Below, one piece after another: positions 6,778 to 21,459 of a stretch of DNA of 64,000 bases (its first letter is position 1; each line of letters starts with the position of its first letter). Source of the DNA: a virus (taxonomy: Duplodnaviria > Heunggongvirae > Uroviricota > Caudoviricetes); the IMG/VR virus record IMGVR_UViG_3300010430_000005, positions 19,467-83,466 of that record; one strand, 5' to 3'. The notes below the pieces were generated by a model. It was not told the origin of the DNA and did not search any database. It saw only the letters and a program-made list of their open reading frames with translations. The position numbers and the translations under genes are program-made.

Positions 6778-7184
6778 ACATAACTTTTGAAGGGGCGGTT
6801 CCGGATTTCATAACAGAAGAAATGCAAAAATTATCTGACTTTGTTGTTGAGTATTTTGGCCCTGGGTTAGACTGCGAAGTGGTAATGGTTTTTGACGATA
6901 ACATGGCAGAGCACGAGCACGGATTTATTGGGCAGACTAATGATGATAGCTACGAAGCGGAGATAAACTCTAACATGTCGTACGAGGAAACCATTCGAAG
7001 CATATTTCACGAAATGGTACATGCGCACCAGTTGTTCTCTGGTAAATTGGTCGTGGAGAAAAGCAATAAATACTGGGAAGGACAATGTTTTTCGCAATGC
7101 GAATATAGCGATTCTCCTTGGGAAATAGAAGCCCACCAAAAAGAAAATGACATGTATTCATTATGGGAGTTCAAGTATGGATGA
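6774..7184 (+). CDS. hypothetical protein with HExxH (zinc-metallopeptidase-like) motif
   Basis: ATGA overlap start. The motif FHEMVHAHQ contains HEMVH. Confidence 0.4.
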   Translation: MNITFEGAVPDFITEEMQKLSDFVVEYFGPGLDCEVVMVFDDNMAEHEHGFIGQTNDDSYEAEINSNMSYEETIRSIFHEMVHAHQLFSGKLVVEKSNKYWEGQCFSQCEYSDSPWEIEAHQKENDMYSLWEFKYG

Positions 7185-8805
7185 GATAGACACAAAACAG
7201 CTAATAATAGAAGCTTATCTAGATATAGTAGAAACGAATATGGCCGTGCCGGTCCAAAGCGATTTTGTCGAATACGGCATAAAACGAGGCGCCATCCGTT
7301 ACCATTTTGGTAACATGGAAAACCTGCATAGATATATAAGCAATAACCATAAAAATGCTATTAGCGAATATTTCTCTACGGTAGACAATGTCTTCAAAGG
7401 CGGCGAGTACGTCGAGCAAAATATGAACAAGAAAAAATATGTCGTGACAACTGCTGTTGCGGATGCTAAGGCACACAAAGGTTTTCTTGATTCTATAAAA
7501 CATTACTGCAAAACCCACGATGCTAGCATAATAATAATGCCTTGCGAAAGCATCACTAACAGTTTTGAGCGCAGAACTGCGACTTTTGATAAAGAATTCA
7601 ACAACGAAGATTATATATTCGTCACAGACGACACTCAGCTAAACGAAAATATTTCGTTATGTAGCATTCAAGTATCGGCCAAGCAAATAAAGCCCATAAC
7701 GGGCCTTAACCGAATAGGTCACCGTGAGGGTTCTTATGTTTTTGCGAGTCCGAAGCAATTCTTAGAGTACGTACCCACAGGACATTCTAGGGGTAAAAAC
7801 TATGCTGTCATGACTCCGGGCGCATGCACCAAACCAAGTTATTATTCGGATACGTTTGTTTCTAAACGACTTTCCTACATCGCGGACCATGACCACACAT
7901 ACGGTGCACTAATAATCGAGATAGAGGACGACAAGACTTTCCACTTCAGACAAGTGCAGGCAGATGAAGAAGGTAAATTTATTGATTTAGGTGTGATGTA
8001 CTCGCCCGAAGGAACAACTAAAGATGTAGAAACTAATGTTATATTGGGCGATGTGCATGCGGCGCAGGTAGACAAAGATGTAGTAGATTCTTTCATAGGA
8101 GCAATGAAAGACATAAACATAAAAAGGTGCTTCCTACACGACATATTTGACGGACACTCTATAAACCACCACATTACAACAATAGGCGAAAGAGCTATGA
8201 GAGCTCTGTATAAAGAGCAATCACTAGAAGAAGAGCTCAGAGTTACTTGGTCCGTAATCAATCACATAAGAGAAGGTTTGGGTGCTGACCACACATATGT
8301 AGTAAAATCTAACCACGATGAGTTTCTTGATCGTTACTTGAAAGAAGGTAGGTATATAGATGACCCAGAAAACCATTACATTAGCTTAAAGATAGCACCT
8401 TCTCTTTTTGGGGAGCTTTGCGGAGATCCTTTGGTGGCCGGTCTAATTTTATCGAACGGTATAGAAACTTTCGAGAACATAACATTCCTTCGTCGCGATT
8501 CGGACGTTACTGTGGGCGGTTCTCAATGCGCAGCACACGGAGACCTAGGCTTGAACGGTGCCAAATCCTCCCTCAACGGTTTAGAAAAAATATACGGTAA
8601 TTGTGTAGTCGGGCATGTCCACAGCGCTGCTATACAACGAGGTGTTTTTCGAGTAGGCACGTTCACTAAGATGGATATGGGATACAACAGAGGGCCTTCG
8701 TCGTGGACACATACTGCATGTCTCTTGTACGAAAATGGCCAACGACAACTCATCAATTGCGTAAATGGTAAGTTTTACAAAGATCAAGAACAAAATACGC
8801 AATAA
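7177..8805 (+). CDS. calcineurin-like metallophosphoesterase domain protein
   Basis: Ordered motifs LGDVHA (GDxH), FDGHS, KSNHDEF (GNHD/E) and VVGHVHS (GHxH). Has a large N-terminal extension. Confidence 0.55.
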   Translation: MDEIDTKQLIIEAYLDIVETNMAVPVQSDFVEYGIKRGAIRYHFGNMENLHRYISNNHKNAISEYFSTVDNVFKGGEYVEQNMNKKKYVVTTAVADAKAHKGFLDSIKHYCKTHDASIIIMPCESITNSFERRTATFDKEFNNEDYIFVTDDTQLNENISLCSIQVSAKQIKPITGLNRIGHREGSYVFASPKQFLEYVPTGHSRGKNYAVMTPGACTKPSYYSDTFVSKRLSYIADHDHTYGALIIEIEDDKTFHFRQVQADEEGKFIDLGVMYSPEGTTKDVETNVILGDVHAAQVDKDVVDSFIGAMKDINIKRCFLHDIFDGHSINHHITTIGERAMRALYKEQSLEEELRVTWSVINHIREGLGADHTYVVKSNHDEFLDRYLKEGRYIDDPENHYISLKIAPSLFGELCGDPLVAGLILSNGIETFENITFLRRDSDVTVGGSQCAAHGDLGLNGAKSSLNGLEKIYGNCVVGHVHSAAIQRGVFRVGTFTKMDMGYNRGPSSWTHTACLLYENGQRQLINCVNGKFYKDQEQNTQ

Positions 8806-8933: not shown

Positions 8934-8960
8934 GAGAGGGCCTTTAGGGCCCTTTCTTTA
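8934..8960 (+). terminator. rho-independent terminator
   Basis: GAGAGGGCC-ttta-GGGCCCTTTC hairpin followed by TTTAT. Confidence 0.5.
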
Positions 8961-8992
8961 TAAATAAAATAAAACCGAAGGAGACTCTTATT

Positions 8993-10720
8993 GTGACTAA
9001 AAAAGAAAAAGACCCGGAGATCAAAGACGTATCTAAGTATGTTGATTTTGATCCAGAGATTACAGAGAACGAACAAGTATCTGAAGCCCTAACACCCGCA
9101 GAAAGAAGGAAACGCGGCCAAGTTATGCGTCGCTATAAGTCCAAAATAGCTGCCGGTAAGCGAAGAGCATCCAAGAAGAGAGCTACGCCGGAGAAACTAA
9201 AGAAAAGAGCTATTAAAAAAGCTAGAGGGTTGATCAAGGACAAGCTGAACAAGTCTAAGTCATATTCCGAAATGTCTGCTGCCGAAAAGGTGGCGCTAGA
9301 TAAGAGAATGGAAAAGATTCCGCAGGCTAGAATAGACAGGTTGGCCAAAAAGCTATTGCCTCAAGTCAAAAAAGACGAGTTAGAACGTATGTCTAAGAAG
9401 AAATCGACGAATGAAGAATTCGAATTATTTCTTGAAAATTGCTGTTTCCCAAAAAGATATCATAAATTACTCACTAAAGACAACTGCGTAAACATAGATC
9501 GTAGATTCAAGATGTACAGGCAGAGGTTTTTAGAAGACGAAAATTTGCACGAAGTTCTAAAGAAAGTAGATGGTAGATGGGCTCTAGTAAGCCGTAAAGA
9601 TCCGTCTAAAGTTCTCCAATATTACGATGGTGAAGGCAAACCTTCAGATGAGTGGGTAAATAAAGTCGAAAAAAGAGTTCAGATGTTTAAACACATGGGT
9701 GAAGAGCATGGCGCTGGCGAATGGGGTACTGACGAGCTAACAGACAAATACAAAAAAGATACTCCAGGTGAAAGCTTGAATGAAAATGCTCTAGGTGCTC
9801 TTAGGTGGGCTACAAAGGCACATTCTGGCCAGAAAAGAAGAAGTGGGGAGCCTTACATTAACCACCCAAAAGAAGTTGCTAGGTTCGTCAAGCAGTTTAA
9901 GAAGTCTCATAACCTGGATGCTCTAATATCGGCAGCTTACTTGCACGACACAATCGAAGACACTGACACGACCCACCAAGACTTAGTTCGTCAATTCGGT
10001 GGCCTTATAGCCGATATGGTTAAAGAACTTACTAGCGACAAAAAAGCTATCGAAGCCATGGGCAAGGGAGAATACATCGCTCAGAAAATGACCAAAATGA
10101 GCAGTTGGGCCCTAGTCGTAAAGCTAGCAGACAGGCTAGCAAATGTCCAAGACATAGATTCGCAATCGCCAGAGTTTCAGAAGAAGTATGCCAACCAAAC
10201 CAAGGTGGCGTTAGACAGGCTGAGAAAAGACCGCGTTTTGACAAAGGCCCACGGTGACCTTATTGATGCTATAGAGAAAAAGATAAAAGAGTATGTCACC
10301 GAGGGTAACCTAATGGGTGTAAACGAGTCTTTCGAGGCTTTGTTAGAGCAAGATTCGTGTGATATAATCACAATGGGGCAAATGAAGGCTTTTGAAAAAT
10401 TTGTGGATAGGATATTCGATAAGTACGATATAGATTTCCAATTCACAAAACACTTCGGAGACCGCATGAGTGACGATAGAAATAAACCATGCATAAAGAT
10501 GAAAGAATTAGCCGACTTTGTTACGAAGATATATAAAAGACAAGGTAAATCCCTAAAAGCAGAAGTAGGCGCCGAAGCAGTAATAAAAGATATGCAATCA
10601 GATTTGAATATTCCTTTGGTTGTGAAATATGACCAAAAGAATGACGAATTCGACATTGTTATGAAGACTATAATGCGCAAAAAGAATTTCAAAACGCCAA
10701 ACAAAGTGATAGAATACTGA
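8993..10720 (+). CDS. RelA/SpoT-type HD-domain protein (candidate (p)ppGpp / alarmone hydrolase) with Lys/Arg-rich N-terminus
   Basis: GTG start with GAAGGAG RBS. HSGQKRRSGEPYINHP...AAYLHDTIEDT matches the RelA/SpoT hydrolase HD motif (R-x-SGEPYI-x-HP ... LHDxxEDT). Preceded by TATAAATA at 8960. Confidence 0.6.
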   Translation: MTKKEKDPEIKDVSKYVDFDPEITENEQVSEALTPAERRKRGQVMRRYKSKIAAGKRRASKKRATPEKLKKRAIKKARGLIKDKLNKSKSYSEMSAAEKVALDKRMEKIPQARIDRLAKKLLPQVKKDELERMSKKKSTNEEFELFLENCCFPKRYHKLLTKDNCVNIDRRFKMYRQRFLEDENLHEVLKKVDGRWALVSRKDPSKVLQYYDGEGKPSDEWVNKVEKRVQMFKHMGEEHGAGEWGTDELTDKYKKDTPGESLNENALGALRWATKAHSGQKRRSGEPYINHPKEVARFVKQFKKSHNLDALISAAYLHDTIEDTDTTHQDLVRQFGGLIADMVKELTSDKKAIEAMGKGEYIAQKMTKMSSWALVVKLADRLANVQDIDSQSPEFQKKYANQTKVALDRLRKDRVLTKAHGDLIDAIEKKIKEYVTEGNLMGVNESFEALLEQDSCDIITMGQMKAFEKFVDRIFDKYDIDFQFTKHFGDRMSDDRNKPCIKMKELADFVTKIYKRQGKSLKAEVGAEAVIKDMQSDLNIPLVVKYDQKNDEFDIVMKTIMRKKNFKTPNKVIEY

Positions 10721-10721
10721 T

Positions 10722-11171
10722 ATGCTAAAATATAAAGATTACGTTTCCGGTTTGGAGGTCTACACGCCAAACCGGAAACAAACATTAGATATGCCTAGAG
10801 GCAGAATGCCCCAAGTTCCTGACGACGCTTTGGGTGAGCTTGCAGATTTCTTTGACGGTAAGGGGATAACTCTGACCTCTAAAAAGGTTAAGGCAGATAC
10901 GCTCCAAGCATCTCAGCGCAATTTCAATAAAGATAAGATACTCAGTGCGGCAGCAAACTATGCTACATCAGACAAAGCCCCACCAATAATAGTATCTAAA
11001 GATAATTATGTTATAGATGGGCACCACAGATGGTTAGGTGCGCTTAATGTTGGGGGCGAAATTCGTGTGTTACAATCTTCAGAAAACGCTAAAGAAACCA
11101 TAGAAGCTATGCTAGACTTTCCTAAGTCATTCAAAAAGAACATAAACGAGAGCTCACAAAGAATGATTTGA
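10722..11171 (+). CDS. ParB/sulfiredoxin-fold nuclease-like protein
   Basis: Contains the DGHHR motif (VIDGHHRWLGA). Confidence 0.5.
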   Translation: MLKYKDYVSGLEVYTPNRKQTLDMPRGRMPQVPDDALGELADFFDGKGITLTSKKVKADTLQASQRNFNKDKILSAAANYATSDKAPPIIVSKDNYVIDGHHRWLGALNVGGEIRVLQSSENAKETIEAMLDFPKSFKKNINESSQRMI

Positions 11172-11797
11172 CTTCCATGAGACATTGCGGCGTTGAAGGG
11201 GTCGATGAGCTTTTATGGGTCAGTAAAGATAAGGGCGCATTTGGTTCTATGACTGACGGGCCTCTTTTCGACTGGATATCCGATAGTGTTAAATTCATGG
11301 AAAACGTCAAAAAATTCGAAACTGTTTTACAGGCTGGCGGTAATTGCGGAATGTATGCTAGATTCTACAGTAATTATTTCGACAGAGTAATAACATTCGA
11401 ACCAGAACCTCTTAACTTCTATTGCTTAGATCGTAATTGCGTAGGTCCTAAATTTGTTAAATACAACGGAGGCTTAGGAAACACCACAACAGAGATGGGC
11501 ATCAAGCAAGGACCGCCGACTAACGTAGGCATGCATAAGATGGTGCCTGGGGAGGGTACTAAAATGTATCGCATAGACGATCTAGATATTAACTCATGCG
11601 ATCTAATCCATCTCGATGTGGAGGGGTACGAAACGGAAGCATTAAAAGGTGCTATAGAGACAATCAAAAAGTTCATGCCAATTATCATAACCGAAAGGTC
11701 AAATGGCGAAAGTATACTAAGAGATTTAGGGTACGTTATGCAAGAGAAATTGAGGATGGATACTGTCTATGTCCCAAAAAATAAAACTGAAGTATAA
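11168..11797 (+). CDS. FkbM-family SAM-dependent methyltransferase
   Basis: Contains GGNCGMYARFYSNYF...VITFEPEP and IHLDVEGYE, typical of FkbM methyltransferases. Start uncertain (TTG at 11168 or ATG at 11177). Confidence 0.55.
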   Translation: MTSMRHCGVEGVDELLWVSKDKGAFGSMTDGPLFDWISDSVKFMENVKKFETVLQAGGNCGMYARFYSNYFDRVITFEPEPLNFYCLDRNCVGPKFVKYNGGLGNTTTEMGIKQGPPTNVGMHKMVPGEGTKMYRIDDLDINSCDLIHLDVEGYETEALKGAIETIKKFMPIIITERSNGESILRDLGYVMQEKLRMDTVYVPKNKTEV

Positions 11798-12350
11798 CAT
11801 ATCATCTTGGGATGCGTCCGGTCTTAATTTCTGGGGAATCACCAAATCAGGCAATACGTCGGTTAAACTAGCATTAATAAGTATACGAGACAGAGAGAGC
11901 AAAAGCCTTGGCGGCACTGAACAGTGGGCCCATAGTGAAAAAATGGCGAACTACATAACACCTGACGAAGCACTAGAAAATGGCAATTACAATTTTTCTG
12001 TTACGCGTCATCCTTTTGATCGTTTCGTTAGCATGTATAAAGATGCTTTAAATAGAAGAAACATATATGGTTTTTCTGGGCATTCGATCGACGATTTTAT
12101 CGAGTATGTTAAAAAGAGACCAGACTCTGAGAACAATATACATGTTAGATCACAGTCATATTTTATAGGCGATAACAATATCGAAACTATCGACTTATAC
12201 GACACCGACAGAATAGAAGAATTATTAGGTGTGCCAATATCGAAAGCAAACCCGTCCGAAGGTTTTGCAGAATTAAATGAAAAACAAAAACAAATCGTAT
12301 ATTCTTTATACGAGAAGGATTTCGAAAGATTAGGCTATGAATACAGATAA
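11769..12350 (+). CDS. sulfotransferase-family protein (PAPS-binding motifs)
   Basis: GITKSGNTS resembles the 5'-PSB loop (PKSGTTW). RHPFDRFVS resembles the 3'-PB motif (RDPxDxxxS). Confidence 0.5.
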   Translation: MSQKIKLKYNISSWDASGLNFWGITKSGNTSVKLALISIRDRESKSLGGTEQWAHSEKMANYITPDEALENGNYNFSVTRHPFDRFVSMYKDALNRRNIYGFSGHSIDDFIEYVKKRPDSENNIHVRSQSYFIGDNNIETIDLYDTDRIEELLGVPISKANPSEGFAELNEKQKQIVYSLYEKDFERLGYEYR

Positions 12351-19455: not shown

Positions 19456-19503
19456 CGCCGTAGTGTGTCAATGTTAAAACCGTGTTACAAAAGGAGACGT
19501 AAC

Positions 19504-20646: not shown

Positions 20647-21459
20647 ATGGAAGTCAAATGGGCAGTAAGCACTGGAGTTTTTGATAGACCAGGCTTTCTT
20701 AAAATAACAGACGCTCTTGATAGAGCAGGCATAGAGTATTTTCAGAGTGAATATGATACAGTATCTCGAAAATACAAAGACATACCATATGGCGTAGATG
20801 AATGTGTCGTCATGTATGGTCCTATCCAATTCGTTAAAAATAATGACAAAGGATTTTTGCCTGGTCCTTTTGGGTACGAAAACCCAAACACAACTCAATA
20901 TATGTCCAAATTGCCTATAGAATGGTTCTTTAATAGTGAATCTATCTATCTTCCGTTTGGGCAAATAATGTCTAAGATCGACTTTATAAATAAGGTGTAC
21001 GGTGACAGACTATTCATAAGACCAGATTCGGGGTTCAAAAGTTTCACCGGATTTAACGTCAACATCGAAGATTTAGAATTTGAATTATCCTCTAGGGCAC
21101 AGACAGAACCTGTTTTTTATGACGAATTGTGTCTTGTAGCTAAAGAAAAACAAATACTTGGAGAATATAGATTTGTCATTTGCGACAAAAAAGTCGTAAC
21201 TGGCTCCCAATATAGATATGACGGAGTGTTGGATATTCGTATTGACGTAAACAGCGATGCTCTGAAAATGGCAGAGAAAGTCGCTCAACACCCTTGGCAG
21301 ATGGATACATGTTACGTTGTAGATATATTTCTGGACGCTCTAGGTGCGCCTAGCATTGGAGAATTCAATAGTTTTTCGAGTAGTGGGCTTTATAGTTGCG
21401 ACGTGGATAAGATAGTAAAAGAAGTAAGTGCTTGTGCACTAAAAGAATGGGAATTTTGA
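20647..21459 (+). CDS. hypothetical protein, possibly ATP-grasp fold
   Basis: The C-terminal SIGEFNSFSSSG resembles the ATP-grasp E-x-N motif. Weak evidence. Confidence 0.35.
   Translation: MEVKWAVSTGVFDRPGFLKITDALDRAGIEYFQSEYDTVSRKYKDIPYGVDECVVMYGPIQFVKNNDKGFLPGPFGYENPNTTQYMSKLPIEWFFNSESIYLPFGQIMSKIDFINKVYGDRLFIRPDSGFKSFTGFNVNIEDLEFELSSRAQTEPVFYDELCLVAKEKQILGEYRFVICDKKVVTGSQYRYDGVLDIRIDVNSDALKMAEKVAQHPWQMDTCYVVDIFLDALGAPSIGEFNSFSSSGLYSCDVDKIVKEVSACALKEWEF

Follow-up and report, generated by a model that had tools for sequence, protein, structure and literature searches.

Why should a phage carry a RelA/SpoT-type alarmone hydrolase domain inside a protein of 575 residues, between flanking regions that have no place in the known small alarmone hydrolases (SAHs)? 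The question arises from a stretch of 64,000 nucleotides (the window; positions 19,467 to 83,466 of the Caudoviricetes record IMGVR_UViG_3300010430_000005), in which a complete open reading frame (ORF) with a GTG start occupies positions 8993..10720 of the + strand. A sequence-only reading had described this ORF, at precisely these coordinates, as a Mesh1-like hydrolase of RelA/SpoT type with a highly basic N-terminus and flanks foreign to SAHs, and our analysis bears it out: the ORF is real, the hydrolase call is correct in that PF13328, TIGR00691 and MESH1 all match, and the N- and C-terminal flanks are indeed alien to known SAHs, belonging instead to a large family of phage proteins in which they are conserved and mobile. 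The product is a mosaic with the module order N-M2-M3-HD-C, and on balance we favour reading it as a multi-effector takeover or counter-defence protein, in which alarmone hydrolysis would be combined with an RNA-directed module.

The hydrolase domain (HD_4, Mesh1/SAH-like; residues ~265-440, 9785..10312, + strand) is identified by Pfam, NCBIfam, PDB and phrog matches alike. Pfam HD_4 (PF13328) is matched over residues 269-403 with E=7.7e-17 (61.9 bits, against a cutoff of 27.2), phrog_990 ('metal-dependent phosphohydrolase') with E=1.1e-32, and TIGR00691 (spoT_relA) over residues 269-404 with E=1.4e-27; the last of these matches is confined to profile positions 1-138 of 687, and therefore represents the hydrolase part only. 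The best NCBIfam models for the domain are those of bacterial SpoT and RelA, and models of the long RelA/SpoT homologues match over their first ~140 positions only, whilst Pfam at E<=1 returns HD_4 and HD and no synthetase domain; with neither synthetase nor TGS/ACT domains, the protein is hydrolase-only. In a search of the PDB the best solved structure is human MESH1 (3nr1, E=1.4e-17, residues 267-398). Long Rel/SpoT enzymes come next through their hydrolase domains (1e-16 to 1e-12), and only at ~1e-5 to 1e-6 does the search reach PaSAH, the (p)ppApp hydrolase 7smg and other 'small alarmone hydrolases'. The protein is not itself a small, single-domain SAH, having 575 residues and four further conserved modules, and on the sequence evidence is best described as an SAH-type domain inside a multidomain protein.

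The protein does contain the motifs quoted in the sequence-only reading, RRSGEPYINHP (residues 282-292) and LHDTIEDT (residues 317-324), as well as KLADRLANV (residues 377-385). Alignment with MESH1 pairs R282, Y288, H291, H318 and D319 with R24, Y32, H35, H61 and D62, and E322, D323, D380 and N384 with E65, D66, D122 and N126; all nine residues are invariant in 91 homologues. In MESH1, H35, H61, D62 and D122 are the Mn2+ ligands, E65-D66 the catalytic Glu-Asp dyad, and R24, Y32 and N126 substrate contacts; the predicted metal ligands of the phage domain are accordingly H291, H318, D319 and D380 and its catalytic pair E322-D323, accompanied by R282, Y288 and N384. Failure of the metal-binding His and Asp residues to align with the SpoT hydrolase motifs had been named beforehand as grounds for abandoning the assignment; every one of them aligns with the SpoT/MESH1 motifs. 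The catalytic centre of Mesh1/SpoT is thus complete and the domain seems fit for catalysis; it is likely to work as a Mn2+-dependent 3'-pyrophosphohydrolase. We give a slightly better than even chance to the proposal that (p)ppGpp or (p)ppApp is what it hydrolyses in the cell and that it serves to keep the infected cell from being shut down by the stringent response or by alarmone-based means. All catalytic and metal-binding residues of MESH1/HDDC3 (3nr1, 5vxa) thus have counterparts in the phage protein, but MESH1 is a 179-residue stand-alone animal enzyme whereas the phage protein has N- and C-terminal modules added. The closest HD_4 relatives are very often ~389-residue fusions of HD_4 with a cytidylyltransferase-like domain of NMNAT/PPAT type, on contigs of up to 237 kb, such that a link between the alarmone-hydrolase fold and a nucleotidyltransferase is recurrent among them; others are fused to NT5C, dCMP deaminase, GNAT, DUF6934, DUF5661 or DUF6267.

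The hydrolase is embedded in a scaffold whose remaining parts recur without it. The conserved N-module (residues ~25-180, 9065..9532, + strand) has the consensus QRRxRAxxMRRxKxKIAxAR...RARKxAI...Y..LSPxEK..IDKRV...RIAKKLLPxVRK...KRxH...KDGxVKxDxRF and is highly basic, as had been remarked of the N-terminus: residues 28-135 are 34% Lys+Arg, with a net charge of +25. It is without a Pfam relative, and its best match in a PDB profile search has E=0.22; judging by charge alone, it may bind nucleic acid, a suggestion that we rate at somewhat less than an even chance. Among the collected proteins it has 92 members and occurs nearly always together with the C-module. There follow two short mobile elements, the M2 mini-domain (residues ~183-236, VLKKVDGRWALVSRKDPSKVLQYYDGEGKPSDEWVNKVEKRVQMFKH; 9539..9700, + strand) and the M3 motif (residues ~237-264, GAGEWGTDELTDKYKKDTPGE; 9701..9784, + strand). 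M2 has ~50 residues and the pattern 'GRWALVSKxxPxKVLQYYxGxGKPSxEWVxKVEKRVQxFKH' (proteins P0242-P0275). Many small marine proteins contain a 55-72% identical copy of it, either as their N-terminus or internally; cupin, acid phosphatase, NUDIX or DUF5661 Pfam domains are present in some of these proteins, and some are named 5'(3')-deoxyribonucleotidase at source. M3, with the pattern 'GAGEWGTDELTxxYxKDTPGQ', is, like M2, a short and highly conserved terminal element of numerous small proteins of marine phages, and in sister proteins stands directly before the C-module. In their distribution M2 and M3 behave like portable tags or docking motifs.

The architecture of the relatives suggests how the hydrolase came to lie where it does. 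Mapping of the collected proteins with hidden Markov models (HMMs) gave more than 20 module orders, those with several modules being led by N-M3-C (47 proteins), N-C (21), N-N-M3-C (14) and M3-C (11), with N-M2-M3-HD-C restricted to the query's own protein cluster. The usual architecture, as judged from these sequences, is N-(cargo)-M3-C, but in this protein the hydrolase comes after M3 and before C; because M3 normally abuts C, it seems that an ancestral scaffold protein acquired the HD domain by insertion at its M3/C junction. Cargo domains in the scaffold relatives comprise CTP_transf_like (NMNAT/PPAT-type), Zeta_toxin/AAA_33 P-loop kinases, DUF5824, ParB-like, HNH and GNAT domains, and the combination of CTP_transf_like with a P-loop kinase resembles the arrangement of NadR. 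Some relatives have after the N-module a recurring stretch, 'DPDIKDxxGTQPxxYYxGLxKSTKxKRxAHFxK', which may be an N-terminal portion of DUF5824. The query, with its basic N-module upstream of M3 and the C-module in one polypeptide, matches phrog_23027 with E=8.2e-56. To that family belongs gp159 of Sinorhizobium phage phiM12 (602 residues), the sole protein of a cultured phage in which both the N- and the C-module were found, in the same order. Its residues 223-393 match the N-module, and over the query it aligns with residues 27-176 (35% identity) and 452-573 (52% identity), leaving the HD domain unmatched; unlike the query, it has ~90 unrelated residues in place of the HD domain and an extra N-terminal region of ~220 residues. 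The window protein is not a gene fusion created by assembly, since its reading frame is uninterrupted and an identical 575-residue protein occurs on independent JGI and ENA contigs (150,280 bp for the longest, from JGI).

The C-module (residues 443-575, 10319..10717, + strand) is, by its modelled structure, a RegB/RelE-like domain of the BECR fold. An exhaustive profile search gave 1,281 clusters at 50% identity, 924 of them at E<=1e-10; of 139 representatives examined, 85 have the module at the C-terminus, 27 internally and 22 at the N-terminus, while 6 consist of it alone, and at the 90% identity level stand-alone C-modules of ~132 residues are very common in marine samples, those of Tara included. 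Cultured phages that encode it are the phiM12 group, Methylophilales phage Melnitz, Paraglaciecola Antarctic GD virus 1 and Flavobacterium phage immuto, and in every case the protein is annotated as hypothetical. Residues invariant in the family are E468, D472, H487, F488, R491, R496, N497, N539, P541, K558, T559, R562 and K563. No Pfam family is matched at E<=10 and no PDB entry gives a genuine sequence match; a profile match to the designed repeat protein Tako8 (E=3.5e-8) was discarded as the sum of eight weak repeat matches. A possible internal start, by which a sigma-70-like site at 10340-10368, upstream of Met461, would yield a stand-alone C-module from this gene, was also considered and rejected, because the ATG of Met461 is without a Shine-Dalgarno sequence and the promoter-like matches are not above chance.

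AlphaFold2 was used to model the C-module from a diverse alignment of 44 sequences, 28 close homologues alone having given an unusable model with a predicted local distance difference test score (pLDDT) of 47. The resulting model (pLDDT 92.3, predicted template modelling score 0.82) comprises a helix followed by a sheet of 4-5 strands, as expected of the fold. In Foldseek searches of the PDB it has HigB2 as its top match, but at E=0.1; against viral predicted structures it finds its own family first and then small proteins of T4-like and jumbo phages, one of which bears the name 'site-specific RNA endonuclease', as RegB does (E=8.8e-5, probability 1.0). Sequence comparison with the RegB family, represented by an alignment of T4 RegB and six diverged homologues, gave no statistical support (hhalign probability 2.7%; HMM searches not significant in either direction), and in the sequences the C-module is not demonstrably a member of that family. 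The single stretch aligned by hhalign nevertheless places H45-x-x-D-R of the module (H45 being H487) on H48-x-x-D51-R52 of RegB, and the weak, non-significant HMM alignments fall on this same H-x-x-D-R place. In the model H487 opens the helix formed by residues 44-50 of the module and T559 lies two residues past the strand 110-115, a placement that fits a RegB/RelE-type cleft and is suggestive only. By its modelled fold, which is that of the RegB/RelE-type endoribonucleases, the C-module probably acts as an endoribonuclease or, failing that, binds RNA; that it does in practice cleave or bind RNA we consider evenly balanced. It differs from T4 RegB (2hx6) and from RelE, HigB, ParE and YoeB of the BECR fold in lacking significant sequence similarity to any of them, and also in its deployment, since RegB is a stand-alone early protein, GGAG-specific and stimulated by S1, whereas the C-module occurs both stand-alone and as a shuffled domain. 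The modules occur only once in the window, which encodes no canonical RegB; an argument from synteny of regB with primase and helicase genes was dropped, as an annotated T4-like genome puts regB in the e-versus-tk region.

Taken as a takeover or counter-defence protein, the product could act as follows. The HD domain would cleave the 3'-diphosphate off (p)ppGpp, and perhaps off (p)ppApp as well, lowering the alarmone level in the infected cell so that neither the stringent response nor abortive infection based on alarmones or toxic small alarmone synthetases (toxSAS) could halt phage production. The sequence-only reading had likewise suggested that the protein might keep the host out of its stringent response or degrade signalling nucleotides of anti-phage defence. 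In a weaker extension of this scheme, the RegB-like C-module, which has an invariant His at the start of a helix and an invariant Thr at the end of a strand, would together with the strongly basic N-module bind, and possibly cleave, RNA at or near the translation machinery. The scaffold might thereby place the hydrolase where RelA makes ppGpp, or else add a RegB-type activity that inactivates mRNA, and hydrolysis of a tRNA 3'-pyrophosphate besides the alarmone is conceivable. PADLOC defence models match neither the 575-residue protein nor its neighbours.

That phages may encode an alarmone hydrolase is not in itself new, because phage SAHs have already been documented experimentally: those of PVP-SE1 (PbcSpo) and SSU5 (PaSpo) neutralise all toxSAS toxins tested, and their use by phages to bypass alarmone-based defence was proposed by the authors of that work (PMC7229694). 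Like the query they are phage-encoded and hydrolase-only, with the same HD_4 domain and the same H...HD...ED...D...N centre, but they are single-domain proteins whereas here the hydrolase is one of five modules in 575 residues (PMC7229694). 'HD-alarmone PDEases' have also been noted in jumbo phages (PMC7824862) and an SAH annotated in Pseudomonas phage Adele (PMC12846349). A further parallel is Atd1, a MazG-like phage (p)ppGpp pyrophosphatase that lowers (p)ppGpp and confers protection from TIR effectors (10.1101/2022.06.09.495361); the logic proposed is the same, that of a phage enzyme depleting an alarmone to blunt abortive infection, although Atd1 has a MazG rather than an HD fold and a single domain. 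We found no description in the open-access literature of an SAH-type hydrolase within an N...M3-C scaffold or of the RegB-like C-module, and the novelty therefore lies in the architecture and in the RegB-like scaffold family, the hydrolase itself being of known type. Phage enzymes that erase alarmones, with SAHs countering toxSAS toxins and Atd1 countering TIR effectors, are an emerging theme in counter-defence, and the present protein has such a hydrolase built into a large, unannotated and modular phage family that is common in marine metagenomes. For that scaffold family the modelled RegB/RelE-type fold offers a first structural lead, to a domain without a Pfam entry. If the scaffold targets its enzymes to RNA or ribosomes, the protein would provide a handle, accessible to experiment, on the contest of ocean phages with slow-growing, nutrient-limited hosts, which may have high ppGpp; if it does not, one more phage alarmone hydrolase and a new RegB-like domain family would still be useful annotation.

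A bolder version, to which we assign a low probability, would make N...M3-C a general carrier that brings interchangeable nucleotide-handling enzymes to RNA or the ribosome, such that the SpoT-type hydrolase is RNA- or ribosome-targeted and the RegB-like domain cuts mRNA. On this view ppGpp would be destroyed at its site of synthesis, or the 3'-pyrophosphate added by CapRel/FaRel2-type toxSAS would be stripped from tRNA. Targeting of the scaffold to RNA or ribosomes would explain the swapping of many nucleotide enzymes into one frame, and were the carrier version true, the family would represent a previously undescribed class of modular phage takeover or counter-defence proteins, abundant in ocean T4-like phages.

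One alternative to hydrolysis of free alarmone is repair of tRNA. The substrate of the HD domain would then be the tRNA CCA end 3'-pyrophosphorylated by a toxSAS (CapRel, FaRel2 or PhRel), and the N- and C-modules would bind tRNA or the ribosome and cleave nothing. MESH1 and the ATfaRel SAH strip the toxSAS-added pyrophosphate from tRNA CCA ends and restore aminoacylation of tRNA pyrophosphorylated by FaRel2 (10.1101/2021.04.30.441581), and phage SAHs neutralise tRNA-targeting toxSAS toxins (PMC7229694); the query's HD domain is nearest to MESH1 among solved structures, and is flanked by an RNA-enzyme-like fold and a region of charge +25. However, stand-alone SAHs of ~180 residues do the same and need no RNA-binding module for it, NMNAT-like and kinase domains, which have no evident connection with tRNA ends, are also found as cargo of this N/C scaffold, and no toxSAS is known for the host. 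We think it unlikely that tRNA repair is the main function.

A second alternative concerns delivery and timing, and is compatible with any of the biochemical readings: the protein might be made late, packed into the capsid with its N-module on DNA, like the internal proteins of T4, and injected, so that hydrolase and RNase would act in the first seconds of infection. The sequence upstream of the gene bears on this. A GC-rich hairpin (AGGGCC-TTTA-GGCCCT) followed by a T-rich tract lies at 8937..8953 (+ strand) and resembles a terminator at the close of the preceding transcription unit, being a consensus match only, with the terminator scan having flagged the stem on the - strand. It is succeeded by a TATAAATA box at 8959..8966 (+ strand), 27 nt before the start codon and identical to the T4 late-promoter consensus, and by a Shine-Dalgarno sequence, AAGGAG, read at 8978..8983 (+ strand), 9 nt before the GTG. 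Because terminator-like hairpin, box and ribosome-binding site all precede it, the gene is probably its own transcription unit and expressed at least partly late. TATAAATA occurs eight times in the window (2433, 8959, 14748, 17052, 17666, 20985, 26827 and 47367), a total not significantly above that in shuffled sequences (mean 4.7); all eight copies are on the coding (+) strand, however, and seven lie in short intergenic gaps directly before ORFs, the gp32 homologue included. It is this bias of strand and position, not the raw count, that suggests function, and with it a gp55-type late transcription system in the phage. The layout upstream of phiM12 gp159 (L001, 5240-5300) resembles that in the window, with a terminator-like hairpin AGCCGGTTTCGACCGGCTTTTT and then CTAAATAT.

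Late expression from a separate terminator/promoter unit, paralleled at gp159, would suit an injected protein, as would the extreme basicity of the N-module, but TATAAATA also precedes the homologue of gp32, a non-structural gene, and T4 late promoters likewise precede non-structural genes such as gene 32. The gene moreover lies among replication genes, not virion genes, and in phiM12/phiN3 the homologue is labelled 'hypothetical protein' whereas the gene two positions upstream is a 'virion structural protein', labels which suggest that the homologue was not detected in virions. Injection would align the protein with the polyvalent proteins of phages and conjugative elements, in which several unrelated effector domains are likewise strung in one polypeptide, like beads, and shuffled between relatives (five modules here), often with BECR-fold RNases, ParB-like nucleases, kinases and GNATs, types of domain common to both groups (PMC5512222). 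Polyvalent proteins are, in contrast, associated with the virion and DNA delivery (MuF, portal, type IV secretion system), whereas this gene stands in a replication module and no MuF, portal or metallopeptidase marker was found in the protein or in the domain calls of its relatives; they have PBECR RNase domains, the C-module matching no Pfam family at E<=10, and they include RelA/SpoT synthetase domains, not the hydrolase domain (PMC5512222). Injection thus seems to us improbable, to about the same degree as tRNA repair.

Least credible is a housekeeping role, in which the scaffold would merely be a tether and the HD domain a MESH1-like NADPH (2'-phosphate) phosphatase, or another enzyme of phosphorylated nucleotides, in nucleotide/NAD salvage. 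The frequent fusion of its nearest relatives to cytidylyltransferase-like domains, NT5C 5'-nucleotidase or dCMP deaminase, the NadR-like arrangement of CTP_transf_like and P-loop kinase domains in scaffold relatives, and the position of the gene in a region of replication and nucleotide metabolism with a ribonucleotide reductase would all suit such a role. Whilst an NADPH phosphatase activity of MESH1 is indeed cited (10.1101/2021.04.30.441581), this alternative is very improbable, given that all residues of bacterial Rel/SpoT (p)ppGpp hydrolysis are kept and the best NCBIfam models are bacterial SpoT/RelA, that no NAD-pathway enzyme was identified beside the gene in the window, and that the RegB-like module would be left unexplained.

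The alarmone-hydrolase reading is set in a genome of T4 type. Coding in the window is almost wholly on the + strand and takes in T4-type genes for replication and nucleotide metabolism, namely a gp59-like loader, gp32, UvsX, a DnaB/gp41-like helicase and ribonucleotide reductase; UvsX is ~52% identical to that of T4-like coliphages, and no near-identical DNA for the window was found among GenBank phages. The source is a T4-like myovirus, probably marine. Directly upstream of the hydrolase gene, at 7147-8805 (+ strand), is a gene for a 552-residue protein that matches phrog_1745 ('DNA transfer protein', E=1.2e-100) and has no Pfam match at E<=0.01. The start codon of the next ORF downstream (149 residues, 10722-11171, + strand) stands 2 nt past the stop of the 575-residue ORF. 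Its product has a ParB/sulfiredoxin-like 'DGHHRW' motif, no Pfam match at E<=0.01, and similarity to internal segments of large phage families whose proteins have several domains (phrog_2859, E=7e-24; phrog_3041, 'cytidyltransferase', E=1.4e-7; phrog_1033, ParB-like, E=1.2e-6). By analogy it may be a cargo-type domain that is encoded separately, since a sister scaffold protein (P0035) has a ParB-like nuclease between its N and C modules. Just beyond, at 11168-12350 (+ strand), an FkbM-type methyltransferase (PF05050, E=1.3e-9) adjoins a sulfotransferase (PF03567, E=1.2e-12), a pair unusual in a phage replication region that may serve the modification of a glycan or another small molecule. Further downstream, at 20647-21459 (+ strand), a 270-residue R2K-clade ATP-grasp protein (PF14243/PF18299, E=1.8e-9) is encoded upstream of the ribonucleotide reductase gene.

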